A stretch of DNA of 64,000 bases, taken from positions 6,071-70,070 of the forward strand of contig JAGLLT010000018.1 of NCBI GenBank assembly GCA_023140385.1, read 5' to 3'. The notes under the pieces were generated by a model. The model did no database searches, had not been told where the DNA came from, and saw nothing but the letters and a program-made list of their open reading frames with translations. Below are positions 24,342 through 49,833 of the stretch, in pieces; the first letter of the stretch is position 1; the number at the start of each line of letters is the position of its first letter. This DNA is from Candidatus Omnitrophota bacterium (GTDB taxonomy: Bacteria; Omnitrophota; Gorgyraeia; JAGLLT01). A program made the translations under genes and the position numbers.

Positions 24342-24576
24342 CTTTTCCCACCATATTCTTTTCAAACTGCTAATCGGCAGCCGGTTGCGTATTTTAACAA
24401 CAAAATACTTCTAAAAGACAATTATTTACTCTTGACTTTATTTCTTGTATTGTGGTATATTAAATAAGTATTTTTTAGAGGTATAGGGGCGGACAAGAAA
24501 CGCCTTTTCCTGATGAAATATACATATTTTGCTAACCCGCTATCTTGTATAGATGACCGGCAGTGGTTACAACATC

Positions 24577-24605
24577 TTGACAAAGCAGCGGGGGTAGTGT
24601 ATATT
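24577..24605 (+). promoter_or_regulatory. Sigma70-type promoter TTGACA-17-TATATT about 130 nt upstream of the GGDEF gene (a second candidate is TTGACT-18-TATATT at 24432-24461)
   Basis: TTGACA at 24577-24582, 17-nt spacer, TATATT at 24600-24605. The predicted leader contains the hairpin CTGCCAAACAAAAGGCAG. Confidence 0.5.
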
Positions 24606-24734
24606 TATAAAAAAGTTAGGACTATAAAGTATTATATACTTTAATATTAACCGACTCCGCCAAACGACTGCCAAACAAAAGGCAGAGTAGTGGAAGTATT
24701 GTATTTAAAGGGGGTTGGGTAAAAGAGACGGACT

Positions 24735-26741
24735 ATGAAGAATAAGAAGATTATTTTAATTGAAGGCAAGGCGGGGGTTTCAGAAAAACTGCTGCCTTTA
24801 TTGGAAGAGCAGAATTGTGAGGTTTTTATAAGCAGAGAAGGCTTAAGCGGTATTCAGGACGTATATCAGCATAAACCCGACCTCATTTTTCTGGACTCGT
24901 CTATTGAAGATATTTCCGCTTTTCAGGTATGCACCTTTTTGAAGGATAAAGATGACTTTAAAGAGATACCCATTGTACTGTTAGGGGCAGATAAAGCGGA
25001 GGAGTTAAATTTTTTCAGAATTAAGGAAGGCGTTCTTGATTTTATTGATGTCTCACAGGACTTAGACTGGATAAATCAGCAGATTAAAGCCATTCTTGAC
25101 AAACATCAGGAGAGCCTCTTCGCGTCAAAGAGTTTTAAGCTCATCGAAGAACTTACTGAAAGCATTCGCCGGTTATCCGGCGGCGGCCAGGCGGATAATA
25201 CGGAAGAAGGAGCGCTGGCTGTGCTGTGTGAAGAGATAGTCTATAAGGTTACTTCAATTTTAAACTCCGAAGTGGGTTCTTTGATGATGATGGATGAAGC
25301 CGGCGGCCACCTTTTTATAAAAGCCGCCCGAGGATTAGATGAAGACGTAATAAATAACACCAGAGTAAAGCTGGGAGAGAAGGTATCCGGCTGGGTAGCC
25401 AAAAGAGGCAGGCCTGTTCTGGTGACTGATATAGAAAAAGATTCAAGGTTTCCTAAGGCAAGTAATGGCAGGTATTATACTAGCTCCTTATTAAGCGCTC
25501 CGCTTAATCTGGGAAGGCTAAAAGGAGTTATAAATGTTAATAATAAGACTACTAAAGAGCCTTATAATGAGAAAGACCTGGCTCTTTTAACGGCACTAAT
25601 AAAGCATCTCAGTTCTACCGCCGAAAACGTGGCCCTTTTTAAAGAACTCGCGGATAGAAACGAGAGGCTCGAGAAGTTAAGGTCGGATAAGAAGATATTG
25701 TCCGGGATTAACAAACTCCTTGATAAAGAACTTTATGATATTGGGATTTCATACGAAATAAATAAAATATTAAATTCCGATTTAGATTATAAGCAGACCA
25801 TAAGCGCGGTAATAGAGTTAATTGAAAGCAGTGTAGACTATCATTTTTGCGGGCTGCTGCTTTTAGATAATGTGCAGGAGGCGGAGCTGATGGTGAGCAT
25901 TAAGTATCCTGCCTCTGAATTTGACCTGGCCGCTTTTAAGGTTAAGACAATTGATACCTTTTATCAGGTATCCGGGTACAATATTCTGCTGGAGAGAATA
26001 GCTTTAAACAGGACTGCCGGGCCGGCTATACTGGTTGCCGAAGCAAAAAAGGATAAAGATGTTCTGAGCAGTTTTCATGCCATAGGATTGAATATAAAAA
26101 ATAAATGCCTGGGACTTTTGGCTGTGAGTCATTCCAGGCCGGAGGCATTCAGCCGTAAAGACCTGAAGCTTCTTTCTATGATTGCCGATCATTCGGTTTT
26201 GGCTATTAATAACGCAGCCTTACATAAGAGAATAAAAAAACTTTCAATAACAGATGGTTTAACGGGGCTTTATGTGTATAGGCATTTTCAGGACAGATTG
26301 GACGAGGAGATAAGGAGGGCCGGAAGATATCAGGAACAGCTTTCCATAATCCTTGTGGACATTGATGGGTTCAAGAGTGTCAATGATAACTTTGGCCATT
26401 TGGTGGGCGATGAGGTTTTAAAGGAGATAAGCCGGATCTTGCTAAAGGCTTGCCGTGAAGTTGATGTAGTTGCCCGTTACGGCGGGGATGAGTTCGCGGT
26501 AATTTTGCCGCAGACCGATAAGGAAGGGTCGTTTTACGTGGCAGAGAGAATAAGGAAGGCAATAAAAGGTAATAACTTCAAATCGCGCGCCCCAGAGCCG
26601 ATTAATTTAACGGTGAGCTGCGGAGCGGCATCGTTTGGTGAATCCGTGAAGGAAAGGGACGTTCTTATCAAAAAGGCCGACGACGCTTTATACCAGGCGA
26701 AAAATGAAGGTAAGAACAAGACGGCGCTAAATCAAGTATAA
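24735..26741 (+). CDS. Response-regulator receiver + GAF + GGDEF diguanylate cyclase
   Basis: 668 aa. N-terminal REC-like domain (phospho-acceptor DSS region), central GAF-type domain(s), C-terminal GGDEF domain with an intact GGDEF motif (ARYGGDEFAVIL) and an upstream RxxD-like I-site. Confidence 0.8.
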   Translation: MKNKKIILIEGKAGVSEKLLPLLEEQNCEVFISREGLSGIQDVYQHKPDLIFLDSSIEDISAFQVCTFLKDKDDFKEIPIVLLGADKAEELNFFRIKEGVLDFIDVSQDLDWINQQIKAILDKHQESLFASKSFKLIEELTESIRRLSGGGQADNTEEGALAVLCEEIVYKVTSILNSEVGSLMMMDEAGGHLFIKAARGLDEDVINNTRVKLGEKVSGWVAKRGRPVLVTDIEKDSRFPKASNGRYYTSSLLSAPLNLGRLKGVINVNNKTTKEPYNEKDLALLTALIKHLSSTAENVALFKELADRNERLEKLRSDKKILSGINKLLDKELYDIGISYEINKILNSDLDYKQTISAVIELIESSVDYHFCGLLLLDNVQEAELMVSIKYPASEFDLAAFKVKTIDTFYQVSGYNILLERIALNRTAGPAILVAEAKKDKDVLSSFHAIGLNIKNKCLGLLAVSHSRPEAFSRKDLKLLSMIADHSVLAINNAALHKRIKKLSITDGLTGLYVYRHFQDRLDEEIRRAGRYQEQLSIILVDIDGFKSVNDNFGHLVGDEVLKEISRILLKACREVDVVARYGGDEFAVILPQTDKEGSFYVAERIRKAIKGNNFKSRAPEPINLTVSCGAASFGESVKERDVLIKKADDALYQAKNEGKNKTALNQV

Positions 26742-26754: not shown

Positions 26755-28284
26755 ATGAAAAAAATAAAATTTATGGCAGGGTTGGTTTTCTTTTTAGTTT
26801 TTTGCTTTTTGGAAACACCGGTTATCCGCGCGGACGGTGGTTTAGTATCCATAGAGGCGGAGGATGAGGAGATTTCTGATGTCTTATACTCAATTGCCGA
26901 AGATAATAACTTAAATCTGGTTGTCGGTAAGAACATAAGCGGCAGGGTAACGGTTAAGCTTGACAGTGTTCCCTTAGAAGATGCCCTGAGGGCAATTTTA
27001 CAGCCGAATAGTTATACCTATACTATTGACGGGGATATGGTTACCGTTTACAGTTATGGTGAATTTCAGCAGCACGAGAGATTCAGCCCTCTGGTAACTA
27101 AGGTTTTTACCCTGGAGAACATTGAGGTCTCCTCCCTAAGACGAGCCTTTTTATCTATGAAGACAACCAGGGGAAGAATGGAGCTGAACTTATTGGGCAA
27201 TCAGGTAATTATAACGGATACTAAGGATAGGATAAAACAGCTAGAGAAGGCTTTAAAGGAGATGGATGTTAAGAGGGACTTTAAAAAGTATAAGCTGAAT
27301 TATGCTAAGGCCGCGGATGTTATAGGAAAATTGACCCAGATTATTTCAGAAGACAGGGGCGACGTATTTTTAGATGAAAGAACCAATAGCATTGTAATCA
27401 GGGCCGCGGGCCCTCTGCTTCAGAATATTGATGAGTTGATTGAAGGATGGGATGTACAGCACAAGCAGGTTTTGATTGAAGCGAAAATCTTAGAGGTAAC
27501 CTTAAATAAGAACAAAAAGCTGGGCATTAACTGGGAGTATGATACACCTGATTCCGCCCGGCGGGGAGAACCCGCCCAGTGGGACCTGAGGGGAGATTTT
27601 TCTCAGAACCTGACCTCGGGAGGGATCTTTCAGGTTGGCACTTTGACCGCTGATGATTATCAGATAACGCTGGAGATGCTGGAGAGTCACAGTGATACTG
27701 AAGTTCTTTCAAGTCCCAGGATTGTTGTTATAGACAACCATGAAGCTAATATTTTGGTCGGCAGTGAAGAGCCCTATATAGTTACTTCCACAGATCCTGA
27801 CACCGGCTGGATATTTGAAGAGACAAAGTTTAAAGATGTGGGTTTGAAATTAGTGGTAACCCCCCAAATAGATGAGAATGATTATGTTACAATGACTATC
27901 CATCCCGAGGTAAGCACCGCCAGGCGGGTGGCTGAGGTATCCAATGCTTTAGCTATAGACACGACCCAGGCCGATACGACTCTGATGGTTAAAAATGGAG
28001 AAACGGTTGTCTTGGGAGGGTTAATGAAGGATACGCGCTCTAAGACGGTAAAAAAGGTACCTCTTTTAGGCGACATTCCTATTCTCGGATACTTGTTCAG
28101 AAGCACAGAAGAGGAGGATAAAAAAACTGAAATAATTGTTTTTATTACTCCCCATATATTAACTGATGACAATCGGCAGTCTGTTTCCCGCGAGAGAATT
28201 AAGGGTGTAGCTGAAAGGACAAATACCACCTTTGATCTGCTTGATGAAGGTGTGCAATTTGAACAGGAAGAACGACTCCAGTAA
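26755..28284 (+). CDS. Secretin (PilQ/GspD family) with a PilQ-like N0 domain
   Basis: Signal peptide. N0-like domain (ISDVLYSIAEDNNLNLVVGKNISGRVTVKLDSVPLEDALRAIL). Secretin_N-like domain. C-terminal secretin domain with the VPLLGDIPILGYLFR signature. Confidence 0.8.
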   Translation: MKKIKFMAGLVFFLVFCFLETPVIRADGGLVSIEAEDEEISDVLYSIAEDNNLNLVVGKNISGRVTVKLDSVPLEDALRAILQPNSYTYTIDGDMVTVYSYGEFQQHERFSPLVTKVFTLENIEVSSLRRAFLSMKTTRGRMELNLLGNQVIITDTKDRIKQLEKALKEMDVKRDFKKYKLNYAKAADVIGKLTQIISEDRGDVFLDERTNSIVIRAAGPLLQNIDELIEGWDVQHKQVLIEAKILEVTLNKNKKLGINWEYDTPDSARRGEPAQWDLRGDFSQNLTSGGIFQVGTLTADDYQITLEMLESHSDTEVLSSPRIVVIDNHEANILVGSEEPYIVTSTDPDTGWIFEETKFKDVGLKLVVTPQIDENDYVTMTIHPEVSTARRVAEVSNALAIDTTQADTTLMVKNGETVVLGGLMKDTRSKTVKKVPLLGDIPILGYLFRSTEEEDKKTEIIVFITPHILTDDNRQSVSRERIKGVAERTNTTFDLLDEGVQFEQEERLQ

Positions 28285-28286
28285 TT

Positions 28287-29894
28287 ATGCCAAATCCCGC
28301 GCAAAAAACACAAGTTACCGTAAAAGATTATCTCCTTATAATATTTCTGCGTAAGAAATTTTTTCTCCTTCCCTTTTTAATTGTCTTTTTTACCGCTTCT
28401 ATCGGAAGTTTTTTTATGCCTAAGTATTACCGTTCAGCGGTAATGGTGAAGGTGGAAGATAAAAAGCCGGTTAATCCTTTAGCGGTGCCGGAAAGAAGGG
28501 GCACGACTGATGAAGATAAAACCTTAGTTGAAAAAATGAGAACTCTTACAGAAGAAATCTTAAGCTACCACCGCTTAATTTTTTTAATAAATGAATTGAA
28601 TCTTCGGGAAAGTCTTGGCAGTATTTCAACTACTACGGAGTCGCTAATTACAGCTTTAAGAAAAAGCATAAAAGTCAAGATGATATCCCCTGAAATTTTC
28701 CTGGTCTCTTATGAAGATAAAGATCCCCAGCAGGCAAAGGATGTCGTTAATAGGTTAGTGGGGATATTTATCGATGAGCAGATTAAGCAAAAAGAAGAAG
28801 AGGCCATGGCCGGAGTTGAGTATGCCGAGTCTGAGGCCGAACTTTATAAAGAAGAACTTGAAAAGGCGGAAGAAAAATTTAAGAAGTACAGAGAAAAACA
28901 CGCCTTGCAGCTGCCGGGTAGAGAGCTTGATATGAACGTTGACATTCTGGTCAGCTATGAGCTTCAGCTAACCAGTTTAAGAATGGACCAAAAGAACCTG
29001 CAGGAAGAAATTAACAAGATAAAGAGGCAGTTGAGCGGCAGAGAAGCGGTAATTATCTCTGATGATATGCTTGATTTAAACCCTATAGTTATTGAACTTA
29101 ATAGAGATTTGCAGGAGCTGCGGCTCGCAATAGATAATCTTCTATTGAGTGACCCGGAGTCAGAAAAGATATATGAGCTTCAACAGGCCTTAGAAGATAC
29201 ACGCCGGCGCCTGCAGGAAGAGATAGAGAAGACGGTTAACGCGGAGACCATAGTCAGCGACCCCTTATTTTATCAGCGCCTGTCCCAACGCTTTAAAGGC
29301 GCCGATCAGAGAATGAATGAGCTAAAGGATAGAGAGAGCGAGTTAACGCGGCTGAAGGAGATGTATGAGAAGAGGATAAAGACCCTGCCCGCACAGGAAG
29401 CGGAGTATAGCCGTTTGGGCAGGGACGTTGAGCTAAACAGCCAGTTATACAGGTCTCTCCGGATAAAGGCGGAAGAAGGCCGCCTGACAGCAGAGGAACT
29501 AAAGAAAATAGGTATTAATTATGAGTTGATAGAAGAAGGCCGTCTTCCTCTCAAGGCCTCCAAGCCGAAAAAGCTGTTAATTACTGTAGTTTCTTTACTT
29601 TTGGGTGTTATGTCGGGCTTTGGCTGTGTGTTTCTGGCAGAGTTTTCAGACCGCTCCTTTAAAAGTACCGAAGATGCCATTGGCTATATGGAAATACCGT
29701 GCCTGGGCTCTGTGTCCAAGATAATGACACGGGGTGAGCTAGCTTCCAGAAGGAGAAGAGAAAGAAGCGCCGCTATCCTGATTGTATGTTTAGCAGTTAT
29801 ACTAATTACCGCCGGTATAGTGTCAACCTATAAAGAAAATGAAGAGGTAAGATTGAAAATTGCCGAGCAGGAAAAACTTGAAGAAGCTGATTAA
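28287..29894 (+). CDS. Polysaccharide co-polymerase / chain-length determinant (Wzz/GumC/EpsF-like PCP)
   Basis: 535 aa. N-terminal TM, long coiled-coil periplasmic region, second TM near the C-terminus, short cytoplasmic tail. It starts 3 nt after the secretin stop. Confidence 0.65.
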   Translation: MPNPAQKTQVTVKDYLLIIFLRKKFFLLPFLIVFFTASIGSFFMPKYYRSAVMVKVEDKKPVNPLAVPERRGTTDEDKTLVEKMRTLTEEILSYHRLIFLINELNLRESLGSISTTTESLITALRKSIKVKMISPEIFLVSYEDKDPQQAKDVVNRLVGIFIDEQIKQKEEEAMAGVEYAESEAELYKEELEKAEEKFKKYREKHALQLPGRELDMNVDILVSYELQLTSLRMDQKNLQEEINKIKRQLSGREAVIISDDMLDLNPIVIELNRDLQELRLAIDNLLLSDPESEKIYELQQALEDTRRRLQEEIEKTVNAETIVSDPLFYQRLSQRFKGADQRMNELKDRESELTRLKEMYEKRIKTLPAQEAEYSRLGRDVELNSQLYRSLRIKAEEGRLTAEELKKIGINYELIEEGRLPLKASKPKKLLITVVSLLLGVMSGFGCVFLAEFSDRSFKSTEDAIGYMEIPCLGSVSKIMTRGELASRRRRERSAAILIVCLAVILITAGIVSTYKENEEVRLKIAEQEKLEEAD

Positions 29895-29927
29895 TTTTGA
29901 TAATGGATTGGGAGTACAAGTATAAAG

Positions 29928-30701
29928 ATGGATAATTTTTCAGAATCGATAAAAAGAGCGGCTGAAGATAGAGAGCAGATGCTGAAGAAAAGCCGAATCG
30001 CGCCCACTTCGGTGGTGCGGGCCAAAGATGGCTCAGGTATAGACGCGAGAGTCGTTACCTATCACAGCCCGAAGTCAAACATAGCCGAAAATTACAGAGG
30101 CATTTTTACCCATCTTAAAAATGCTTCAGAAAAGCTTAACGCTAAGGTAATCGCTATTGTCAGCTCCTCTCTTAACGAAGGCAAGAGTATTACGGCTGTT
30201 AATTTGTCGGTGATTATGGCGGCAGATTTTGGGAAAAAGGTTTTATTGCTTGACTGTAACTTAAGAAGCCCGCGAATAGACGAGTTGTTAAATATAAATG
30301 CCCAAGGCGGCCTTTCAGAGATCTTATCTGATAACTTAACTTCTAAGGCGGCTGTAAAGCCTACGGGGATTAACAATCTTTTCGTAATAACCGCGGGCAA
30401 AGAGGCCGGTAGTCCGGTTGAGCTGTTACATAGTCAAAAACTGCCGCGGTTATTAAAAGAATTGAGAGCGGAGTACGATTATATAATTATTGATACAGCG
30501 GCAGTTATTCCTTATTCTGATTTTAAAGTAATGGCGCCCTGGATAGACGCGGCGGCCCTGGTTGTTAGGGTTCATAAGACTTCGCGCGAGGTAATAACGA
30601 GGGCAGAGGCTATGTTGAAGGAGTTAAGAATTAACGTTCTTGGTTTTATGCTCACGGACGTTGAATATTACATTCCGGACTTTATATATCGTCACCTTTG
30701 A
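29928..30701 (+). CDS. BY-kinase-type tyrosine autokinase (CpsD/CapB-like P-loop ATPase)
   Basis: Walker A-like SSSLNEGKS, Walker A' LLLDCNLRSP, Walker B DYIIIDTAAV, and a tyrosine-rich C-terminus (EYYIPDFIYRHL). Confidence 0.7.
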   Translation: MDNFSESIKRAAEDREQMLKKSRIAPTSVVRAKDGSGIDARVVTYHSPKSNIAENYRGIFTHLKNASEKLNAKVIAIVSSSLNEGKSITAVNLSVIMAADFGKKVLLLDCNLRSPRIDELLNINAQGGLSEILSDNLTSKAAVKPTGINNLFVITAGKEAGSPVELLHSQKLPRLLKELRAEYDYIIIDTAAVIPYSDFKVMAPWIDAAALVVRVHKTSREVITRAEAMLKELRINVLGFMLTDVEYYIPDFIYRHL

Positions 30702-30759
30702 TTGTCTGTACTTTTAAATACCTTAAGAAGAGGCGAAGGAGGCAGATAATGTTTGTATT

Positions 30760-30797
30760 AACCAAAATCCAAAGGTAGTGGGTTTTGGTTTTTTTAA
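30760..30797 (+). terminator. Possible rho-independent terminator after the BY-kinase gene
   Basis: Inverted repeat AACCAAAA...TTTTGGTT followed by TTTTTTT. The stem is AT-rich, so it is weak. Confidence 0.35.
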
Positions 30798-30847
30798 TAA
30801 AGTCCAAATTTACATAATAAAGTGATGGGTTTGTAAGGGAAAGAATA

Positions 30848-32278
30848 ATGAAAACTATCCAAAGAATCGCGAAAAATACGGCTATTTTAACTGCGGCTGA
30901 GATAGTAAATAAAGCCTTATCTCTATTTTTATATATTGCCATTGCTAATTATTTAAGAGCCGCCGGCTATGGCCGGTTTTCGTTTATTATAGCGCTTTTG
31001 GCCCTCTTCCAAGTGCTGGCAAACTTTGGCCTTAATAAACTGATTATCAGAGATGTGGCCAAAAATAAAGAGATAACCCGCGCTTACGTATCTTTTATGA
31101 TGAAGCTTAAAGCCTTTTTTTCGTTAAGCGCGTATCTTATTTTTATTTTATCTGTTTGTTTGATGAAAAAACCACCGGAAGTTATTTTCGGGGCGTATTT
31201 GATAGGCCTCTCAATGATATTTATCAGCCTATCCAACGTTTATCTGTCTGTTTTTAATGCTCACGAGAAACTGGAAATAAATGCCATCTCTTTGATTTTA
31301 GTAAAGATAGTCATTGTGGGACTGGTAATTCTATTTATTAGCTTAAAAGGAAGCCTCTTGCTTATTTTGGGCGCCTTTGTCGCCGGCGAGGCTTTGAGAC
31401 TATTGGTACTTTGGCTGGTTTATGATAAAAGTTTTAAGTGTAAACTTTCAGAAGAAGTTGTTAAATTATCAGTAAAGAGGATTGTAAAAACTGCTTTCCC
31501 GTTTGTCCTGGCAGGAGTCGCCTCTTTGATATATATGCATGTCGATAAGATTATGATTTCTGTTATCAAAGGAGATAAAGCTGTCGGCTGGTATAGCGCC
31601 GCCTATACCCTTATCGTAGGGTTAATGTTTATTCCGCGCTGCTATACTCTTTCCGTTTTTCCCGCTATCTCTCGTTACGCGAAAAGTTCCAAGAGGCTAT
31701 TGAGTATTTCCTGGCAAAGATCAGTCAAATATCTTTTGATTATCTCTTTACCTATCGCGGCCGGCGTATTTATTTTAGCTGAGAGGTTTATAAATATTTT
31801 ATACCATAGCGGCTATGAAAATAGTACCGTTGCTTTAAAAATATTAATACTGGCTATACCATGGATTTTTGTAAATTCGATAAATATTTATTTGTTGTAC
31901 GCGGCAAATTTTCAAAAGCGGGCAATGTTTATAATTCTGGCCAGCGCTCTTTTAAACATAGTTTTAAATTTCATTTTTATTCCGCGTTTTAGTTATATAG
32001 GTGCCGCCTGGGCAACAGTTTTGGCGGAAGTTGCCAATAGCCTGATGCTCTTTATTTTTATATACACAGGTATGAATTTAAGAATAGAGATTCAGAACAC
32101 GCTTATTAAGCCGCTGGTAGCCGCCTTTTTTATGGGGACACTGATTTATTATTTCAGATCAGGTAACCTGATAATAATTATTGTGACGGCATCTATTTTA
32201 TACGCGGGCGCGCTTACTTTACTAAGGACATTTGATAGAGAAGATAGGGATATAGTAAAAAAAATAATTACGGCATAA
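30848..32278 (+). CDS. Oligosaccharide flippase (Wzx/MOP superfamily polysaccharide biosynthesis protein)
   Basis: 476 aa with about 12-14 TM segments. Conserved N-terminal motif of PST/Wzx-family flippases (KNTAILTAAEIVNKALS...YGRFSFI). Confidence 0.65.
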   Translation: MKTIQRIAKNTAILTAAEIVNKALSLFLYIAIANYLRAAGYGRFSFIIALLALFQVLANFGLNKLIIRDVAKNKEITRAYVSFMMKLKAFFSLSAYLIFILSVCLMKKPPEVIFGAYLIGLSMIFISLSNVYLSVFNAHEKLEINAISLILVKIVIVGLVILFISLKGSLLLILGAFVAGEALRLLVLWLVYDKSFKCKLSEEVVKLSVKRIVKTAFPFVLAGVASLIYMHVDKIMISVIKGDKAVGWYSAAYTLIVGLMFIPRCYTLSVFPAISRYAKSSKRLLSISWQRSVKYLLIISLPIAAGVFILAERFINILYHSGYENSTVALKILILAIPWIFVNSINIYLLYAANFQKRAMFIILASALLNIVLNFIFIPRFSYIGAAWATVLAEVANSLMLFIFIYTGMNLRIEIQNTLIKPLVAAFFMGTLIYYFRSGNLIIIIVTASILYAGALTLLRTFDREDRDIVKKIITA

Positions 32279-32324
32279 GGATACTTGCAATTAAATTATC
32301 TTTAAATAAATTTAGAATGAAAAG

Positions 32325-33797
32325 ATGAAAATTATTAAAGGCTTAATGGATAATAAAGGAACCTTAGCACAGAAAACAGCCAGAGGCGGGATCTGGGTAT
32401 TCGGCTCTTTTTTCTTTGCCAAGGTACTATTTTTTATCAGAACGGTTATTCTGGCCAGACTTCTCATCCCTAATGATTTTGGGATGATGGGCATTGCTAT
32501 TCTTGCAATGACAGGTATGCAGGTACTTACCGAGACCGGAATTGATCAGGCGATAATTCAAAAGAAAGGAGTTACCAAAGACGCACTTGATACCGCCTGG
32601 GTTATATCTGTTGCGCGCGGAATTATACTTTTTATCGTTCTCTATTTGTTATCTCCAGCTATTGCCGCTTTTTATAATAATCTTATGCTTGAACCTTTAC
32701 TAAAAGTGCTCTCTATTTCTTTTCTTTTTTTGGGGTTACAAAATATCGGTGTTGTCTTTTTTCAAAAAGAGTTAAACTTTAAAAAAAGAGCTTTGTTTAC
32801 CACTGCAACAGACGTTATAAATATAATTTTTACCGTGTTATTCGCGGTAATTCTAAAAAATGTTTGGGCTGTGGTAATTGGTTGTGTTGTCGGTAATTTG
32901 GCGAAGCTGATTATATCATATCGGATTCAAGCTTTTCGTCCTTGTTTTAAATTTAATCCGAAAGCTGCTAAAGAGTTACTGAAATTTGGAAAGCACGTTT
33001 TTGGGGCAAGCGTAATGATTTTTTTCGTTACTCAAGGAGATGATGCTTTGGTTGGTAAGATGTTAGGATTAGAAGCGCTTGGTTTATATGTTTTAGCCTA
33101 TAGCTTGTCCAATATGCCAACAACGGCGATTACGCATGTTATTTCCCAGGTGAGCTTTCCGGCCTATTCAAAAGTGCAGGATGACACTAAAAGGCTTGGG
33201 AGAGGGTACTTAAAAATATTAAAGTTTACCGCGTTATTAACTATACCCTTGGCAGCCGGACTTTTTATTTTGGCTCCCGAATTTATAAAGATAGTATACG
33301 GTGAAAAATGGCTGCCTATGCTTCCCGCGGTTTTGATTATGTGTTTCCTGGGTTTTTTCCGCGCCATCGGAGCGACGATGGGACCTGTTTTCTTTGCGGT
33401 TGGTAAACCGCACATCCAGCACAAGATAAAGTTATGTGAGTTGATAACAATGATTGTAATTATCTATCCGTTAATAAAGATGTTTGGCATCGTTGGCGCC
33501 GCCCTGGCCGGCACATTTGTCTATTTCTTAAGCTTAATATTGCATTATAATAATCTCATTAAAGTTATTAAGGGCATAAAACTTGAAATTTTTAAAACTA
33601 TAAGCAAGCCCTTAGTTTTGAGTTTACTGATGGCGGTTTTTATCTTTTTGCTAAAAAAGCACTTTCTTATATGTATAAATTTAAGCGGTTTATTTTTTCT
33701 CTCTATAGTTGGCTTAGTTTTTTATACAGCCTCAATCTTTTTTATTGATAAAGAGGGAATTGAATTTATGAAAACAACGATTAAACTTATCAAGTAA
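32325..33797 (+). CDS. Second Wzx-like flippase (MOP superfamily)
   Basis: 490 aa polytopic membrane protein. N-terminal motif and topology of the PST family (LAQKTARGGIWVFGS..., ...LGLEALGLY...). Confidence 0.65.
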   Translation: MKIIKGLMDNKGTLAQKTARGGIWVFGSFFFAKVLFFIRTVILARLLIPNDFGMMGIAILAMTGMQVLTETGIDQAIIQKKGVTKDALDTAWVISVARGIILFIVLYLLSPAIAAFYNNLMLEPLLKVLSISFLFLGLQNIGVVFFQKELNFKKRALFTTATDVINIIFTVLFAVILKNVWAVVIGCVVGNLAKLIISYRIQAFRPCFKFNPKAAKELLKFGKHVFGASVMIFFVTQGDDALVGKMLGLEALGLYVLAYSLSNMPTTAITHVISQVSFPAYSKVQDDTKRLGRGYLKILKFTALLTIPLAAGLFILAPEFIKIVYGEKWLPMLPAVLIMCFLGFFRAIGATMGPVFFAVGKPHIQHKIKLCELITMIVIIYPLIKMFGIVGAALAGTFVYFLSLILHYNNLIKVIKGIKLEIFKTISKPLVLSLLMAVFIFLLKKHFLICINLSGLFFLSIVGLVFYTASIFFIDKEGIEFMKTTIKLIK

Positions 33798-33809
33798 AAG
33801 GAATATATA

Positions 33810-35207
33810 ATGAAGTATGATTTAGAAGAACGTCCTCTAATTGAGTTTTCCGGCTTAGTAACGTTTTTTATAATTTTCTTTTCACTGGCCTTTGGAGTTA
33901 GCTTTTTATTCTTACCGTGGTATGTAGTTTTGGTTCTATTTACCGGGTTTGCTATTACTATAGGAATTGTGTTTAATCCGTTCATTGGTGTTCTGCTTTT
34001 TTTAGTAACTACATATGTTCATGTTATGGCTTTTGCTCCTGTCGAGCTTATTAAATCGCAGCCGGCAGTTATGGCAGGCGGCATTGTACTGCTTGCCTGG
34101 CTTTTTCATCTTATTATTTACAAAGATTTTAAGCTACCCAGGTCTCCGCAGTTTTTATGCGTGATTGGCCTTACTCTTATGGGGTTTTTTTCCGTAATTT
34201 TTCATTTAAACGAATACGAAAACTTTTTTTTGGTTTTTCATTTTATTAAGATGTTAATACTGTACTTTTTGGTAACTAACTTGATAAAAACCGAAAAGCA
34301 GTTATACGTTTCACTTACTGTAATATTAATATTAACTTTCGGTACCGCCCTTTCCGGCGTTATGCAGTATTTACAGAGCGAAGCAACTATAGAGGTTGAT
34401 AGAGTCGCGGGTTTTGAAGGCAACCCGAATGCCCTGGCAATAAATTTAGTTTTTATAATTCCCTTTATCGTAGGCCTTATTCAATATTTTTCCTCTTTGA
34501 AATTAAAAGCATTGCTCTTGTGCGTTTTTCTTATTGTATTATCTGGTATTGTTTTTACATTTTCCCGGGCGGGCTTTCTCGCTCTGGCTGTGGTTTTTCC
34601 GATAAGTTTATGGAGATTTTCGAAGAGGCGGAATAGAATATGGCTGATAATAGTGTTTATTGTTTTTCTTGGCCTATTGATTCCTTTTTTACCTGAGCAG
34701 TACTGGGAAAGAATTCAGTCAATAACTGATTTTAGCGATGTAAGTATTATTGGCAGGCTGGATAGTTATCGTATCGGCTGGCAAATGATAAAAGATAATC
34801 CCTTTCTTGGAATTGGCCCGGGAAGATGGGCTTATAAGTATGTAGCTTACGCGGCAAAACTAATAGGAATTACAACTTATAACTGGTGCCCTTTTAATGT
34901 ATTTATTGAAACAGGAGCGGAAAACGGCCTCTTTGCTTTAGGATTCTATGTTTTTATTATCTTTTTCTCATTTAAAGAACTGAATAAGGCTAAGATTATT
35001 TTTGAAAAGAAGGGCAAGTTATTGCTATCAAAAGCATCGCAAGCTTTTTCAATAACCTTAATTGGATTTTTGGTAAATACAATCTTTGAAGCGGGACTGG
35101 GATTAAAAGTGTTTTGGATTATTGCAGGGCTTTCTGTTGTACTTAAAGAGGTCGCTTTAAATTTAGAACTTAATACTTCAATTAATACTTTTAAAACGAA
35201 TGGATAA
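33810..35207 (+). CDS. O-antigen ligase / Wzy-like polymerase family protein (exosortase-associated O-glycosylation-ligase-like)
   Basis: 465 aa multi-TM protein with the Wzy_C-type loop motif (FTFSRAGFLALAVVF...GIGPGRW...H). Confidence 0.65.
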   Translation: MKYDLEERPLIEFSGLVTFFIIFFSLAFGVSFLFLPWYVVLVLFTGFAITIGIVFNPFIGVLLFLVTTYVHVMAFAPVELIKSQPAVMAGGIVLLAWLFHLIIYKDFKLPRSPQFLCVIGLTLMGFFSVIFHLNEYENFFLVFHFIKMLILYFLVTNLIKTEKQLYVSLTVILILTFGTALSGVMQYLQSEATIEVDRVAGFEGNPNALAINLVFIIPFIVGLIQYFSSLKLKALLLCVFLIVLSGIVFTFSRAGFLALAVVFPISLWRFSKRRNRIWLIIVFIVFLGLLIPFLPEQYWERIQSITDFSDVSIIGRLDSYRIGWQMIKDNPFLGIGPGRWAYKYVAYAAKLIGITTYNWCPFNVFIETGAENGLFALGFYVFIIFFSFKELNKAKIIFEKKGKLLLSKASQAFSITLIGFLVNTIFEAGLGLKVFWIIAGLSVVLKEVALNLELNTSINTFKTNG

Positions 35208-36372
35208 AATAAATATTGCGCACATAACAACTCCCAGGAGGGATCAACTTTCAGGCTCTGATAGAGTAATTTTGTCTATTTTATCAAAGTCAGACAAGAA
35301 AAAATTTAATCATATTGTTTTCTGTTTAACGCACAGGGAAAATAAAGGGTACTTATTAATTGAAGAAGTAAAAAAAATAGGCGCAACGGTAGAGACAATA
35401 ATTTTAAAATGGCGGTTTGACATAAGAGCTTTTTGTATATTAAGAAGTTTATTAAAGAAATATAACATTAGTATTTTGCAGACTTATGAGTATAAAAGTA
35501 ATTTTATAGCTTTATTTTCAACTTTTTTTATCAAGGCTAAAAAAATTGCCCGCATCGGCGGCTGGTTAGGCTTTGGCTTAAGTATTAAGAGTTGTAACTT
35601 AGATAGAAAAGCCTTTATTTATGAGTTGATAGATTCTTTTGTGAGAAAATGTTTTGATAGAGTTGTTGTTGTGTCGACAGAAATTAAAGATAAACTTGTA
35701 GCTCAGAGGTGTGCAAAAGATAAAATAGTTTTAATACATAATGGTACTGATTTGGATGAATACTATCAAAATTCAGCTGATTCAACAAATGTAAAAAAGA
35801 CCTTAAGCATTAAATCCGGCGCTAAGATTATAGGTACGATAGGCCGCCTGACAATTGAAAAGGGGCACAGGTATTTACTGGAGGCAGCCGTTGAGGTGCT
35901 GCAAAAATACCCCGATGCAAAATTTGTTATTGTAGGTGAAGGTGAACTCAAGCGCGCATTATTTGACTACTCGAAAAAGTTGGGAATTGAACACAGTATA
36001 ATTTTTACAGGTTTTTCTGAAAATGTGGGTAAATATTTGTCTATTATGGACATCTTCGTTTTTCCGTCCATATGGGAAGGTTTTGGGATAGTGGTGATTG
36101 AGGCGATGGCCGCCGGCATTCCGGTAATTGCTACTAAAGTGGGAGGCATCCCTGATATTATAGAAAACAACGAAACTGGTATTTTGGTGGAAGCTAAAAA
36201 TTCACCGCAACTAACCAAGGCGATAAACCTGTTATTGTCAGATGGGGAAAAATGTGAATTTTTTAAAAATAACGCAAAAAAAATTGTTAGAGATAAATTC
36301 TCCTCAAAAGTAATGATAGAAAAATATGAAGAAATGTATAACAATCTTGTAGCGACCTATGGAAATATTTAA
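35200..36372 (+). CDS. Glycosyltransferase family 4 (GT-B)
   Basis: C-terminal GT4 motif FVFPSIWEGFGIVVIEAMAAGIPVIATKVGGIPDII with the E-x7-E motif. Confidence 0.8.
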   Translation: MDKINIAHITTPRRDQLSGSDRVILSILSKSDKKKFNHIVFCLTHRENKGYLLIEEVKKIGATVETIILKWRFDIRAFCILRSLLKKYNISILQTYEYKSNFIALFSTFFIKAKKIARIGGWLGFGLSIKSCNLDRKAFIYELIDSFVRKCFDRVVVVSTEIKDKLVAQRCAKDKIVLIHNGTDLDEYYQNSADSTNVKKTLSIKSGAKIIGTIGRLTIEKGHRYLLEAAVEVLQKYPDAKFVIVGEGELKRALFDYSKKLGIEHSIIFTGFSENVGKYLSIMDIFVFPSIWEGFGIVVIEAMAAGIPVIATKVGGIPDIIENNETGILVEAKNSPQLTKAINLLLSDGEKCEFFKNNAKKIVRDKFSSKVMIEKYEEMYNNLVATYGNI

Positions 36373-37477
36373 ATATAAAAAAAGGAAAATTTTAGTAATT
36401 TCTATGCAGGGCATTGGCGATCTCCTGCTAATTACCCCTGCTTTGTCTTTATTGCGTAGAAACTTTCCACAGTCTATCATTTCTGTTCTTGTGTTGTCTA
36501 ACGCAAAAGATATAATTCTTGGGAATCCGGATATTGATAGAGTGATAATATACGATCATAAGAAAAAAAGCATTTTTGCAATATTAAAATTTATCTTGAA
36601 GCTTAGAAAGGAAGGCTTTAACTTATCAATTTGTGCTTATCCTAGCGGCCTTCGCGCAATCTTTGTTGGTTTTTTAACAGGCGCTCCTTTACGCATTGGG
36701 CAAAATTTAGTATGTGTAAAAAAAATCCCCTTTTTACTTACGCATAAAATAGATGTTATCAAAGTTAAGCATGCTGTTGATATGAATATTGACCTTATTA
36801 AAACCTTAGGACAAGTGTCCAACGATAAAAAAAAGCAACTAGTTATGCCTATAAATCAAACAGATACAGAATTTGTTCTTCGATACAAGCGGAGGCATGA
36901 CATAAGCGACACTAATATTTTTATTTGTATCCATCCGGGTGTTAGCAAACTGGGGGAGTCTAGAAGATGGCCTTTGGATAAATTTATTAAACTATCTGAC
37001 AGATTAGTCGAAGAGTACAACGCAAGAATTGTTTTTATTGGGATAGAAGATGACAGAGCGGCATTAAATGAAATTAACGGAACTATGAACAAAAAACAAT
37101 TAGTAGTTGTTAACTGGCCTATAAAAAGAGTTTCTGCTTTAATAAAAAGTTGCGATCTTTTTATAGGTAATAACTCAGGCCCGATGCACATTGCCGCTGC
37201 CGTGAAAACTACAACTATAGGACTTTTTGGTGATACTGATCCTCGTATCCATGGGCCGTATGGAGAAAATAACATTGTAGTAAGAAAAAACTTGAACTGT
37301 AGCCCATGCTTCTATCCTTTTTTGCATGGAACGCTTGATTGCGCCAGATTAGACAGGTGTATTGGCAGAGGCAGGCCTAAGTGCATTAAGAGTGAATTTG
37401 AGTGCATGAAAAGTATCGAAGTTGATGATGTGCTGAAGGAAGTAAAAAAAATAGAATCAGTGTGGAAACGTACATAA
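36359..37477 (+). CDS. Glycosyltransferase family 9 (heptosyltransferase-like) with a Cys-rich C-terminal tail
   Basis: GT9 motifs ISMQGIGDLLL near the N-terminus and FIGNNSGPMHIAAA. The C-terminal about 45 aa hold six Cys (CSPC...DC...RC...KC...EC). Confidence 0.65.
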   Translation: MEIFKYKKRKILVISMQGIGDLLLITPALSLLRRNFPQSIISVLVLSNAKDIILGNPDIDRVIIYDHKKKSIFAILKFILKLRKEGFNLSICAYPSGLRAIFVGFLTGAPLRIGQNLVCVKKIPFLLTHKIDVIKVKHAVDMNIDLIKTLGQVSNDKKKQLVMPINQTDTEFVLRYKRRHDISDTNIFICIHPGVSKLGESRRWPLDKFIKLSDRLVEEYNARIVFIGIEDDRAALNEINGTMNKKQLVVVNWPIKRVSALIKSCDLFIGNNSGPMHIAAAVKTTTIGLFGDTDPRIHGPYGENNIVVRKNLNCSPCFYPFLHGTLDCARLDRCIGRGRPKCIKSEFECMKSIEVDDVLKEVKKIESVWKRT

Positions 37478-37504
37478 TGCAAATATAGTTACCAACAGGA
37501 GAGA

Positions 37505-39790
37505 GTGATAGTGGTTAGAGCTTATAAGAAAACAAGAGTTTTTCTTGCTTTAGCAATTATAGTTACTATTGTTTCTTGTTTCTCCCGTGTTATGCGCGGA
37601 GGAACTGAAAATCAGCCGCCTTTATGTGAAGATATGAATCAGCTTATCCCCATGCCTCAAGAATTTCTTTATAAGGGAACTGAAGTTGCCTTAGACGGCA
37701 ATTGGGATATTTTAGTTGATATATTTGATGAAAATGATTTCTTTGCGGCTATGGAACTCCGAAAAGAACTGCGCAAAACGCATAACCTGTCTCTGGCAGT
37801 AAAAGCTATAAACAATAATTTGTCATCTGAAAATAACCATATAATGCTGGTAAATCTTAGAAAAAATGAGAAGACAATTCCTTTTTGTTTGAATAAAGGC
37901 ATCTATTTTGACAAAACCTTGCCGGAAGAAGGATATATCTTAGAAGTGTTTAGCGACAGTATCATTATTGCGGCAGGGAGCGGCTCCGGCGTATTTTACG
38001 GGGCGCAGTCATTGAAACAATTGATTAAAAGCGAAGAGGATTTAGTTGTTGTTCCCGAAGTAAAAATTAAAGATTGGCCGGATTCCAAAATAAGGGGAGT
38101 TCATCTCTGCGGCATTGGTTTGTCCGATATGTACGATGTAATTAATAAAATAGCCGCCCTAAAAATGAATACGGCCATAATTGAAAGAGATTTCTGGTAC
38201 GATTTTCGTTTAAAAAAAATAAACGATCTGGTTAATTACGAAAAGTTTTTTGACTATTGCAGAGAACGTCATATCAATCCTGTTCCAAACATACATAATT
38301 TTGGAATTTCTTCTTTTGTGTTAAAAGAAGATCCGCATTGCGCGGAAGGAATTTGGGTGCAAGATGAAAAGTTTGAATTTGTTGACAACATGGCCCGCCC
38401 GATTATAGCGCTGGATGTTGAAATAAAAAATCCTGGCTTCGAAAAAAATGGCGGACAGAATGTTCCCGAGGGCTGGGAATTTCGCACCGACTTGCTTAAT
38501 TCAATTAATTACTGGTTATGGGATGACAGCGTCGCGCATACTGGCACTTATTCTGCAAAGGTTTCTCTGGATAGCCAGGGTTCAAGCAACTCTTTGTTGC
38601 AAAAATGCCAAGTTACGCCTCGAGCGGCGTATAGCCTTACATTTTACGCAAAAAGATCTCCTGATGGTAGTCAGGGGTATCCGATAGCTATGCGTATCTC
38701 TCAGCGAGATAAATACAACAGGCCCATCGTAAAAAATTATTACCCAGTGAAAAGTAAGCGCTGGCAAAAGCATATTTTTAATTTTATTACCGAACCGGAC
38801 TGCGTGTCGATTCATATTATTCCAAGTATTGTTTCTGGTAAAGGAGCAGCGTGGTTTGACGATTTAGAACTCAAAAGGATGAATGGTAGTTTGATTAATG
38901 TTATTCAAACAGAAACTTCAAATATTATTATCACAAATTTGGATAAAACTAAGATCTATATAGAAGGAATAGACTATAAAGTTGAAGATGGAGATATGAG
39001 ATATTGGGATATTGATGAAGGAGATGCTTACCCGTATGATTTTAGATATCGCGCGCCGACCAAAATTAAGAGATTGCCGAATGGCAGGATAAAAGAAAAG
39101 GAGAAAGTTTTATTAAATTATAATTTTGTTTTACAACTTAATCCCTGTTACTGGAAATCTACATATTGTCCCGGAGAACCAAGGACGTATGAAATTGTGT
39201 TTCAGGCCATAAGAGGTTTAATGGAGAGCGCTCTTAATATTGATGCTATCGTTATCGGGGACTCTGAGGTGTTTGGTATGAACAGAGATTCAAGGTCGTT
39301 AAAAGAGGGCAAAAGCAATGCCGAACTGTTAAGTTACGATATAAACAAGATATGCAATTTTATTTATAGCCTGAAACCCAATATGAAAATTTTTCTATAT
39401 GATGACATGCTTAACCCTCATCATTTTGGAGGGCAAAAGTTGTTGCAAATGATATATGGCGGCAGGATGAAAGGGGGTACGGCTGAAGCGATAAAGTCAA
39501 TCCCTAAAAATGTAGTTCCTATTGTCTGGTGGTATAAAGGGGATGATGAGCTGCATAAAATGAAAAAAAGCCCGTCATATTTTAAAGCTAATGGATTTGA
39601 CTATATGGTGGCTACCGCATACGATAAAGAAAACATACATAAATGGGCAGATATTATCTCGAAGAGAAAAGACTGTTTGGGTGTAATCAATACAAATTGG
39701 CCAAATACCCCGCCTGAATATAAATGGGGAGGCTTAAAGTTGACCGCCGGCTATTCATGGAATTATAAAAGTAGAAGTTATACTAAATAG
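37505..39790 (+). CDS. Glycoside hydrolase-like protein with GH20-type N-terminal/TIM-barrel signatures and an inserted CBM4/9-like module
   Basis: Signal peptide/TM. GH20-like start (GSGSGVFYGAQSLKQLI ... KIRGVHL) and a divergent acid motif VIGDSEV where HIGGDEV is expected. A central jelly-roll-like module begins NPGFEKNGGQNVPEGWEF. The call is tentative. Confidence 0.4.
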   Translation: MIVVRAYKKTRVFLALAIIVTIVSCFSRVMRGGTENQPPLCEDMNQLIPMPQEFLYKGTEVALDGNWDILVDIFDENDFFAAMELRKELRKTHNLSLAVKAINNNLSSENNHIMLVNLRKNEKTIPFCLNKGIYFDKTLPEEGYILEVFSDSIIIAAGSGSGVFYGAQSLKQLIKSEEDLVVVPEVKIKDWPDSKIRGVHLCGIGLSDMYDVINKIAALKMNTAIIERDFWYDFRLKKINDLVNYEKFFDYCRERHINPVPNIHNFGISSFVLKEDPHCAEGIWVQDEKFEFVDNMARPIIALDVEIKNPGFEKNGGQNVPEGWEFRTDLLNSINYWLWDDSVAHTGTYSAKVSLDSQGSSNSLLQKCQVTPRAAYSLTFYAKRSPDGSQGYPIAMRISQRDKYNRPIVKNYYPVKSKRWQKHIFNFITEPDCVSIHIIPSIVSGKGAAWFDDLELKRMNGSLINVIQTETSNIIITNLDKTKIYIEGIDYKVEDGDMRYWDIDEGDAYPYDFRYRAPTKIKRLPNGRIKEKEKVLLNYNFVLQLNPCYWKSTYCPGEPRTYEIVFQAIRGLMESALNIDAIVIGDSEVFGMNRDSRSLKEGKSNAELLSYDINKICNFIYSLKPNMKIFLYDDMLNPHHFGGQKLLQMIYGGRMKGGTAEAIKSIPKNVVPIVWWYKGDDELHKMKKSPSYFKANGFDYMVATAYDKENIHKWADIISKRKDCLGVINTNWPNTPPEYKWGGLKLTAGYSWNYKSRSYTK

Positions 39791-39837
39791 CATTTCAGAT
39801 ATTAAGCGAAGAGCATTGTTTTTATTATTGCGGGAGA

Positions 39838-41082: not shown

Positions 41083-41141
41083 AGGGAGGCCTCTAATTCA
41101 AATATTTGCGCAAAATTTAGAATTTGAATTAGCGGAGTATT

Positions 41142-42128
41142 ATGAAATTAATAGTTAATGTATCAATAATAATGCCTTGTTATAATGAGGTACAACACAT
41201 TGCAAAGTGCATGGAATCGATAGTTGCTAACGATTTTCCAAAGAATAAATTGGAAGTGCTTATATATGATGGCGGAAGCACTGACAGCACATTAAATATC
41301 CTAAAAGAATATACCCAAAAGTATTCATTTATTCACGTAAAAAGTAATAACCGCAAAATACAGGCGGCAGCTATGAATTTGGGCATTAAAGAAGCTCAAG
41401 GTGATATTGTTATAAGAATGGATGCTCACACTGTTTATGAAAAGGATTATATTTCTCAAGCGGTAAAGCTGCTAAATGAGACGAGCGCGGTAAATGTTGG
41501 CGGGCCTCAAGCTGGTCAGGGCAACTCGTATTTTACGAATAGCTTAGTTATGGCACTATCAAATGCTTTTATTTCTGGTAATGCCGTATATAGGTCTGAT
41601 AAAAACGTCCAACAGTATGTTGACACTGTTTATTTAGGTGCATGGCATAAAAAGGATTTAGAGGCTATTGGAGGCTTTGATGAATCTTTTATGGTTAATG
41701 AAGACTATGAATTAAATTATCGGCTTCGCAAAAAAAGCGGACAGATTTTATTTTCACCCAAAATTAAATCAACCTATTATGCGCGGAGTTCTTTATTTAA
41801 ACTAATTAAACAGTATTTTAGATATGGCTTTTGGAAAGCTAAAACTCTTAAGAAGCACCCCGCGTCTTTAAAAATCAGGCAAATGGCGGCACCGCTTTTT
41901 ATTTTAACATTATTTTTTTCTATAGCGTTCACTTTTTGCCAAAATTACTATTTATTGTGGCTTTTGTCGGGTTGCTATGTAATTGTGTTTGTGTTATTAT
42001 CAAGAAGCAGCCTTAACATGAAAAACATAAAATATGTGCCTGCTGTTTTTTTTATCGCTTTATTTATTCATCTTTCGTGGGGAGTGGGTTTTTTTGCCGG
42101 CCTTATTAGGTGGTGTTTTTATAAATAA
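41142..42128 (+). CDS. Glycosyltransferase family 2 with C-terminal TM segments
   Basis: VSIIMPCYNE, DGGSTD and DAH motifs (GT-A fold DxD-type), followed by hydrophobic C-terminal helices. Confidence 0.8.
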   Translation: MKLIVNVSIIMPCYNEVQHIAKCMESIVANDFPKNKLEVLIYDGGSTDSTLNILKEYTQKYSFIHVKSNNRKIQAAAMNLGIKEAQGDIVIRMDAHTVYEKDYISQAVKLLNETSAVNVGGPQAGQGNSYFTNSLVMALSNAFISGNAVYRSDKNVQQYVDTVYLGAWHKKDLEAIGGFDESFMVNEDYELNYRLRKKSGQILFSPKIKSTYYARSSLFKLIKQYFRYGFWKAKTLKKHPASLKIRQMAAPLFILTLFFSIAFTFCQNYYLLWLLSGCYVIVFVLLSRSSLNMKNIKYVPAVFFIALFIHLSWGVGFFAGLIRWCFYK

Positions 42129-42133
42129 AAAGT

Positions 42134-43120: not shown

Positions 43121-43138
43121 ATTAAAACAAAGCGGGAA

Positions 43139-43942: not shown

Positions 43943-43991
43943 TTAACACAATTTTTGTGCTAAAAATGTAAATTGAAAAAAAGTTTTATAA

Positions 43992-49824: not shown

Positions 49825-49833
49825 TTTTTTGAG

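Follow-up and report, generated by a model that had tools for sequence, protein, structure and literature searches.

In the 64,000-nt stretch of DNA analyzed here (the window; Candidatus Omnitrophota bacterium, contig JAGLLT010000018.1, positions 6,071-70,070 of the forward strand), an exosortase-linked locus of the Wzx/Wzy-dependent exopolysaccharide (EPS) pathway carries the gene (26755-28284) for a secretin, a type of outer-membrane channel that usually serves pili and protein secretion, directly upstream of the gene for the polysaccharide co-polymerase (PCP; 28287-29894), which is followed by a gene for a bacterial tyrosine kinase (BY-kinase; 29928-30701). Across about 38 related loci, the secretin and PCP genes keep their order and the short distance between them, and are inherited together, with the secretin replacing the outer-membrane polysaccharide export (OPX) protein in its slot. 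We favor the interpretation, to which we give roughly even chances, that a dedicated secretin paralog took the place of the Wza-type OPX protein in this pathway. Every large open reading frame (ORF) of the window lies on the plus strand.

Analysis of the 26755-28284 product (509 aa) shows that it is a true secretin, as originally predicted and with the same ORF boundaries; as a member of this superfamily, it would be expected to form a homo-oligomeric gated outer-membrane channel. A Pfam search of this ORF identified the Secretin domain (PF00263; 1.2e-50, 171.8 bits against a cut-off of 27.5), Secretin_N in two stretches (2.9e-15, 56.7 bits) and STN (2e-8, 34.3 bits), with no match to Poly_export or SLBB, and both the C-terminal secretin signature VPLLGDIPILGYLFR and the motif KKVPLLGDIPILGYLFRS are present. 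In the AlphaFold2 (AF2) monomer model (pLDDT 78), an N-terminal hydrophobic helix (residues 2-19), corresponding to a predicted signal peptide, is followed by N0/STN (30-99), two ring-building N domains (113-170 and 174-232), the secretin domain (238-469) and a C-terminal helix; the top Foldseek matches of this model are PulD, GspD, InvG and PilQ, all with a probability of 1.00.

The narrower designation of this protein as PilQ-type needs a correction. The closest solved sequence relative is PilQ of V. cholerae (5e-49), with GspD proteins close behind, and the label is not established because the secretin scores just under the cut-off of the PilQ model TIGR02515 (283.7 against 284.35 bits) and well under that of the GspD model TIGR02517 (283.4 against 351.35 bits). 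PilQ secretins are encoded with pilM/N/O/P and commonly carry one or more N-terminal AMIN domains. No AMIN domain is reported for this protein; the AMIN, PilM, PilN, PilO and PilP families have no match in the window, and no PilO-like or GspC-like neighbor is found in the PCP-linked loci. The N0-N1-N2-N3 plan of GspD is not seen either, the model containing N0 and two N domains only, and the GspD-type setting (gspC-M genes) is absent from the window and the PCP-linked loci. The secretin is equally GspD-like, and its sister clade is linked to type II secretion (T2SS).

The association of the secretin with the PCP is conserved far beyond the window. The closest secretin homologs (44-72% identity) are nearly all labeled Candidatus Omnitrophota. 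In each of the six contexts that we read directly, the genes run secretin-PCP-kinase, followed by Wzx, Wzy and glycosyltransferases, and the upstream genes are wholly different, namely, cysS with a gene for a PEP-CTERM protein, coaBC with pilin-like genes, or a tRNA_bind-domain gene. A scan with the PCP alignment against one genome per GTDB species yielded 35 loci (Omnitrophota, two Auribacterota and one UBP3), and a secretin gene lies directly upstream of the PCP gene in all 34 species-level loci with upstream DNA; the same adjacency was observed in independent metagenome loci (L001-L005, L007 and L129). One Auribacterota-labeled locus, annotated with Pfam, has carB on the opposite strand, then secretin-PCP-kinase-Wzx and, further on, GH20b. 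The gap between the secretin stop codon and the PCP start codon has a median of 3 nt and is 0-11 nt in most loci; in the window, as had been noted, the two genes nearly touch, the junction reading TAA (28282-28284), TT, ATG (28287), with 2 nt between stop and start. Within Omnitrophota, Auribacterota and the Planctomycetes-Verrucomicrobia-Chlamydiae (PVC) group, the PCPs of this family are 41-100% identical, and beyond these groups, identity is at most 25%. The PCP family is thus discrete and the adjacency universal; therefore, the secretin and the PCP are co-inherited. Chance or misannotation is ruled out by the Pfam domains, the AF2 model, the Foldseek matches and the 34 of 34 adjacency. A homolog of the diguanylate cyclase encoded at 24735-26741 is found immediately upstream of the secretin in about two-thirds of the related loci. 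The cyclase (often present), the secretin, the PCP and the BY-kinase form a tightly packed, co-directional, co-inherited module that heads a variable glycan block. The proposal that an orphan pilus or secretion secretin had been captured by the locus does not survive this comparison, given that the secretin is a dedicated paralog inherited with the PCP and BY-kinase across Omnitrophota, Auribacterota and UBP3.

Both partners of the secretin are recognizable. The PCP (PCP-2b; 535 aa) matches GNVR (1.4e-11) and scores 224.7 bits with TIGR03007, under the cut-off of 278.85; its model (pLDDT 77) shows a Wzc-like periplasmic fold with two transmembrane (TM) helices, and chains of solved Wza-Wzc complexes are among its best structural matches. 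A long extra C-terminal helix (residues 482-534), possibly a third membrane helix, is predicted to follow TM2 and a short cytoplasmic segment, and its hydrophobic character is kept across the family. The BY-kinase (257 aa), a separate polypeptide, scores above the cut-off of TIGR01007 (133.3 against 108 bits) and under that of TIGR03018 (147.1 against 230.65 bits). It contains Walker A GKS, Walker A' DCNLR and the conserved tail EYYIPDFIYRHL. The family's BY-kinases have D[CA]N[LFM]R in place of the canonical Walker A' DxDxR, and the tail is not a loose tyrosine cluster but a nearly invariant Tyr-rich segment, EY[YH]IPE[YF]I[HY][RK][HY]L. The Wzb phosphatase family has no match in the window.

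The slot occupied by the secretin is the one in which capsule and slime clusters normally encode a Wza-type exporter, and in more distant systems an OPX protein is encoded in or near it. The two nearest PCPs outside the family (24-25% identity) come from canonical XrtA loci with a Poly_export/SLBB protein upstream. In one of these (L047), whose OPX is of the Pseudomonadota family of XrtA/PEP-CTERM export proteins, the OPX gene directly precedes that of the PCP (OPX-PCP-kinase); in the other (L048), which contains a GspA-like ATPase gene, it lies one gene further upstream (OPX-unknown-PCP-GspA-like-kinase). Therefore, the secretin occupies or adjoins the OPX position. In many distant exosortase loci, the OPX gene adjoins that of the exosortase.

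The original prediction also held that no Wza-like protein and no genes for T2SS, type IV pili (T4P) or the MSHA pilus were present near the secretin, and for the window both statements stand. The Poly_export, T2SS, T4P and MSHA families have no match among the 52 scanned plus-strand ORFs of at least 100 aa (including 61435-61998 and 63268-63717), and no window ORF has a prepilin-like N-terminus. We built an OPX hidden Markov model (HMM) from about 36 OPX proteins encoded beside distant exosortases, together with E. coli Wza; as a control, this model detected about 40 OPX proteins beside distant exosortases. No OPX was found with it among the window ORFs of at least 60 aa in six frames, the single match being spurious (E 0.57), or in about 40 related loci with flanks of up to 10 kb on each side. 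Using the L047 OPX as the query returned only Pseudomonadota-type XrtA export proteins. Queries with two XrtA-type OPX proteins, with E. coli Wza and with the HMM derived from them gave no sign of a hidden OPX in the locus. The window proteins 39838-41082 and 45050-45922 have no Pfam or NCBIfam match. The related loci thus largely show neither a Wza-type partner of the PCP nor a secretin beside pilus genes, which favors recruitment of the secretin.

In the neighbor-joining (NJ) tree of secretins, all PCP-linked members fall into one clade. We looked up the contexts of four members of the sister clade: in L045, the secretin gene ends a complete gspE-F-G-H-I-J-K-L-M-C operon, with GspM-like and GspC-like neighbors; in L006 and L046, it follows PilO/GspM and GspC-like genes and precedes protease genes; and the context in L044 is uninformative. 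One genome probably carries both a PCP-linked (P0059) and a T2SS-type (P0120) secretin. The possibility that the PCP-linked protein is the sole secretin of the genome, shared with pili, is disfavored by these sister paralogs in T2SS-type contexts and by the assembly with, apparently, both types.

Under the interpretation that we favor, a WecA-like enzyme would start repeat units linked to undecaprenyl diphosphate, Wzx would flip them, and Wzy would polymerize them under the control of the Wzc-like PCP and the BY-kinase. We infer that the PCP docks on the secretin, its periplasmic crown meeting the N0/N-ring vestibule of the secretin multimer in place of a Wza octamer, and that the growing polymer exits through the secretin gate, possibly carrying exosortase-processed PEP-CTERM proteins. 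Output would be set by cyclic di-GMP (c-di-GMP) from the adjacent cyclase, and the lipoprotein with tetratricopeptide repeats (TPR) encoded next to the exosortase might help the secretin reach the outer membrane. More generally, and with somewhat less than even confidence, we propose that this is, in Omnitrophota and their neighbors, a fourth kind of outer-membrane translocon for Wzx/Wzy polysaccharides, namely, a secretin ring docked on a Wzc-like co-polymerase that operates with neither an OPX nor a pseudopilus and whose wide channel may be required by a bulky glycoconjugate cargo, a polymer bearing exosortase-attached PEP-CTERM proteins.

Several considerations weigh against this scenario. 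In the systems known so far, it is a pilus, pseudopilus, needle or phage filament that opens the secretin gate, and neither such a piston nor an HR-domain partner (GspC/PilP) is encoded in the locus. The 12-15-mers of secretins and the octamers of Wzc would not match in symmetry. The PCP-linked and T2SS-type secretins are equal in domain architecture and domain lengths, and the PCP-linked clade has only 5 clade-specific conserved positions, with no obvious adaptation to a glycan cargo; this near-absence of differences weakens, rather than supports, specialization. The secretin tree is a simple NJ tree that carries no support values, and co-transcription and coupling of the module genes are deduced from their spacing. 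At the level of whole genomes, the absence of a Wza-like protein did not hold: a published annotation table lists PF02563/K01991 for the metagenome-assembled genome (MAG) DG02-5-26, which is, by name, the source of the module-carrying locus L026, so that an OPX is encoded elsewhere in at least one locus-bearing genome, and K01991 is given for one or more other Omnitrophota genomes. The absence of pilus genes, too, has an exception in orthologous contexts: in one subclade only, 1-3 tandem pilin-like genes are located directly upstream of the cyclase gene. These genes, seen in L004 (6290-7597) and also in L011, L017, L018, L019, L022, L023, L035 and L042, encode near-identical proteins of 133-146 aa that start with GFTLIELLVVMAII... 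and match N_methyl and SBP_bac_10.

The main rival explanation is that the secretin moves protein, either exosortase-processed PEP-CTERM proteins or other substrates of the T2SS/T4P type, and is co-transcribed with the PCP and BY-kinase genes so that matrix protein and glycan coincide, with the polymer leaving via an OPX encoded elsewhere. Protein export is the main rival because GspD of M. xanthus is reported to translocate sortase-type MYXO-CTERM proteins (PMC12475490), and several features of the loci fit it: the exosortase and EpsI genes close the same gene string; a PEP-CTERM gene lies beside the module in L001, L002, L003, L009, L021, L040, L032 and L033; the domain architecture and domain lengths of the secretin are the same as those of its T2SS-type sisters; and the OPX listed for a locus-bearing genome and the pilin-like genes of one subclade are also as this explanation would have it. 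However, canonical XrtA/PEP-CTERM loci do without a secretin, their OPX being encoded at or near that position, and what invariably accompanies the secretin is the PCP rather than the exosortase, which in the window is encoded about 18.5 kb downstream. Furthermore, the PEP-CTERM and pilin-like neighbors are limited to subclades and absent from the window, neither the window nor most of the loci encode an ATPase, platform or pseudopilin set, and separate T2SS-linked secretin paralogs exist in the phylum. On balance, we regard protein export as unlikely but as a serious competitor. The original suggestion that a secretin was recruited as the outer-membrane conduit is, accordingly, borne out in part: the secretin is dedicated and sits in or next to the OPX slot, and polysaccharide, rather than protein, is its putative cargo by position.

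An intermediate arrangement, which we consider improbable, is a composite translocon in which the secretin provides the pore only, in the manner of the Wzp/GfcD-type beta-barrels of M. xanthus and E. coli, and a short periplasmic OPX of class 3, its gene located elsewhere, connects the PCP with the outer membrane. Class-3 OPX proteins have no membrane-spanning domain and need a separate pore (10.1101/2022.02.11.480155; PMC9601211; PMC12819527), and PF02563/K01991 is, after all, listed for a locus-bearing Omnitrophota MAG. Nevertheless, known composite systems keep the OPX and pore genes side by side and next to the PCP gene, no OPX is encoded within up to 10 kb on either side of the approximately 40 loci, and the OPX genes of Omnitrophota may belong to separate ABC-transporter or Wzc loci. 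Less probable still is a purely genomic link, that is, a pilus or T2SS secretin gene that happens, by ancestry, to be fixed beside the PCP gene although the two products share no function. The secretin does score at the threshold of the PilQ model, type IVa pilus (T4aP) genes are reported in most Omnitrophota (PMC10066038), and synteny can last by descent inside one phylum; however, the adjacency outlasts wholesale changes in the downstream and upstream context (upstream, cysS; coaBC and pilin-like genes; a tRNA_bind-domain gene; carB) and differing sets of glycosyltransferases, is kept down to about 41-45% protein identity and in two other candidate phyla, and the short gaps (0-11 nt in most loci) point to selection for co-expression. 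Replacement of the OPX protein by a dedicated secretin remains the interpretation that we favor.

The rest of the window provides the setting of the module. Housekeeping genes (secA, lnt, lysS, lolCE/D-like, mcsA-mcsB-clpC, mlaEFD, radA, ispDF, cysE and cysS) head the window, and cysS is followed by a 394-nt spacer and then by the string of genes from the cyclase to EpsI, which ends at 48242. The best sigma-70-like promoter match of the region, a consensus match only (24577-24605, plus strand; TTGACA-17-TATATT, 11/12), falls within this spacer. The cyclase (REC-GAF-GGDEF; 24735-26741) has an intact GGDEF motif and an RxxD I-site, and its gene ends 13 nt before the secretin start. A terminator-like hairpin, likewise a consensus match only (30760-30790, plus strand; 12-bp stem and T run), is located between the BY-kinase gene and the first Wzx gene. 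The cyclase, secretin, PCP and kinase genes may form a four-gene unit apart from the glycan genes, because the strongest promoter-like site is in the cysS-cyclase spacer and the terminator-like hairpin comes right after the BY-kinase gene. Two other genes in and around the locus are related to c-di-GMP, which makes three with the cyclase: a GAF-HD_5 (HD-GYP-type) gene (62066-63241) and a weak PilZ-domain ORF (53315-53839) that overlaps a PocR/AraC regulator gene at the end of the latter; no receptor through which c-di-GMP would act on the export module was identified. Upstream, a low-G+C stretch (0.34-0.38) with long unassigned spacers (2702-5427) contains genes for a small MNT-like nucleotidyltransferase (2702-3010) and a DUF4153 membrane protein (3955-5427). 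Small ORFs of the 23S_rRNA_IVP family (PF05635) are inserted in relatives (L003 13376-13786, L001 1864-2211), once between the PCP and kinase genes.

Downstream of the hairpin, the Wzx/Wzy pathway core is complete by profile matches, comprising two Wzx-type flippases (MOP/Polysacc_synt; 30848-32278 and 32325-33797), a Wzy-type polymerase (Wzy_C; 33810-35207) and a WecA-like initiating transferase (Glycos_transf_4; 43992-45029), and the combination of PCP-2 and BY-kinase that is a feature of this pathway is also present in the window. The transferase gene is the last of a stretch of glycan-building genes (35200-45029) that encode GT4-family (Glycos_transf_1), GT9, GH20b-like, 414-aa, GT2, epimerase, methyltransferase and WecA-like proteins. 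The GH20b-like protein (37505-39790; 761 aa), which may be a hydrolase that trims the polymer, is a predicted lipoprotein with a lipobox-like signal (IVSC) and an N-terminal Glyco_hydro_20b domain; a protein of this kind is encoded late in the locus in most relatives, and L005 has a GH123 protein instead. The gene order glycosyltransferase (GT)-Wzy-GT-GT9-GH20b-GT-WecA is repeated in relatives, and the gene content of the glycan block varies among them. The G+C content is 0.34-0.39 in the block from Wzx to the methyltransferase (about 30000-44000), compared with 0.42-0.45 in the export module and the flanks. The similarity of the export module to the flanks, along with the lower G+C and variability of the glycan block, fits a fixed exporter serving changeable glycans, and the Wzx-to-methyltransferase block looks as expected for an exchangeable glycan-specific cassette.

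The string closes with four genes encoding a 290-aa protein (45050-45922), strongly hydrophobic, probably spanning the membrane several times and conserved 5' of the TPR and exosortase genes; the TPR lipoprotein (45906-46775; 289 aa, lipobox LSGC), conserved just 5' of the exosortase gene in relatives and weakly similar to BamD/YbgF/PilW; the exosortase (46789-47628); and EpsI (47601-48242). The order WecA-290-aa protein-TPR-exosortase-EpsI is complete in L050 and partial, at contig ends, in L049, L051 and L053. The TPR lipoprotein could be a candidate pilotin (PilF/PilW class) or a short PrsT-like exosortase partner. The exosortase scores under the cut-off of the XrtA model (172.8 against 208) and above that of the generic exosortase model TIGR02602 (146.9 against 105.55), and EpsI scores above the cut-off of its own model (85.6 against 42.8); the XrtA-specific models for exosortase A, PCP (TIGR03007) and kinase (TIGR03018) all remain under their NCBIfam cut-offs. 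A C-terminal motif (regex) screen of the 64-kb window revealed no PEP-CTERM cargo, and the cysS-cyclase spacer (24342-24734) has no credible ORF where relatives hold a PEP-CTERM gene. Such a gene comes shortly before the cyclase and secretin genes in L001, L002, L003, L009, L021 and L040 and is divergently oriented in L032 and L033; the PEP-CTERM proteins that adjoin the module in relatives are 212-244 aa long (for example, L001 7048-7701 and L003 5909-6562), and that of L001 scores 27.5 with PF07589 (cut-off 20.7). Genes for a solute-binding protein and a GH94 phosphorylase (48424-52242) directly follow EpsI in the window and again in L049, and a GH94 gene is also found upstream of the module in L007.

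To our knowledge, the recognized outer-membrane exits for bacterial polysaccharides are three, namely, Wza-type OPX pores, composites of an OPX and a beta-barrel, and the TPR/beta-barrel porins of synthase systems. The arrangement described here suggests an undescribed polysaccharide route across the outer membrane. The case for secretins as exopolymer exits in cyanobacterial and myxobacterial slime rests on housekeeping secretins with multiple jobs, for which no link to synthesis machinery is shown; here, in contrast, a dedicated secretin is joined gene to gene with the co-polymerase in every genome found with that PCP family. If the proposal of a fourth kind of translocon is correct, it would be the first secretin-polysaccharide machine to be genetically hard-wired and would give a mechanistic footing to the recent claim that secretins serve as exopolymer nozzles. 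The secretin N-domains and the PCP crown make a clean, testable pair, amenable to modeling, covariation analysis and heterologous reconstitution. There is also a warning for annotation: the 'PilQ' and 'GspD' calls in Omnitrophota, and the pilus and T2SS counts derived from them, may include the EPS-linked paralog. In the open-access literature, we came across no account of a secretin gene clustered with PCP and BY-kinase genes, including in connection with an exosortase or Omnitrophota; the main survey of Omnitrophota reports pili and not the secretin-PCP locus (PMC10066038), and secretins go unmentioned in the papers on OPX classes and on composite translocons (10.1101/2022.02.11.480155, PMC9601211, PMC9603273, PMC12819527).

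The locus can be compared with several known systems. The Wza-Wzb-Wzc machinery of E. coli group 1 capsule and colanic acid (2J58, 7NHR; 9r64/9r68) is likewise Wzx/Wzy-dependent and controlled by a BY-kinase, its PCP has the Wzc-like fold, and the gene for its outer-membrane component lies directly upstream of that for the PCP (wza-wzb-wzc). Unlike the E. coli machine, the locus has a secretin rather than a Poly_export/SLBB/Wza_C octamer, with a lumen several times wider than that of Wza, and gated, and the kinase is separate and the Wzb family is not matched. With the XrtA/PEP-CTERM loci (Haft 2006; TIGR03007, TIGR03018, TIGR03027, TIGR03109), the locus shares the exosortase and EpsI, the split PCP and tyrosine kinase, the TPR lipoprotein and Wzx/Wzy; moreover, the best NCBIfam matches of the window PCP and kinase are XrtA-system models, and the nearest outside PCPs come from XrtA loci. 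It differs from them in that a secretin stands in place of the absent OPX export protein and in that neither a GspA-like ATPase nor a PEP-CTERM cargo gene is present in the window. The composite OPX/beta-barrel translocons (M. xanthus WzaX/WzpX and relatives; PMC9601211, PMC9603273, PMC12819527) offer a precedent for a Wzx/Wzy pathway whose outer-membrane pore is not made of Wza's own helices and is encoded beside the export genes; the pore there is an 18-stranded barrel, whereas here it would be a secretin multimer, with no OPX alongside. The T2SS GspD proteins of the phylum itself (L045, L006, L046) have the same plan of N0, two N domains and the secretin domain, the same lengths and about 43-49% identity to the window secretin; however, these follow gspM-gspC-like genes, whereas the window type is followed by the PCP and BY-kinase genes, has a longer C-terminal tail and belongs to a separate clade. 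Finally, secretins have been reported as exopolymer 'slime nozzles', specifically, PilQ in filamentous cyanobacteria and GspD in M. xanthus (Zuckerman, So and Hoiczyk 2025, PMC12475490). There, as in our interpretation, a secretin is the proposed exit for a non-protein exopolymer, but those nozzles are housekeeping pilus or T2SS secretins for which no PCP or Wzx/Wzy link is given, whereas the secretin described here is a separate paralog operonically joined to the PCP.

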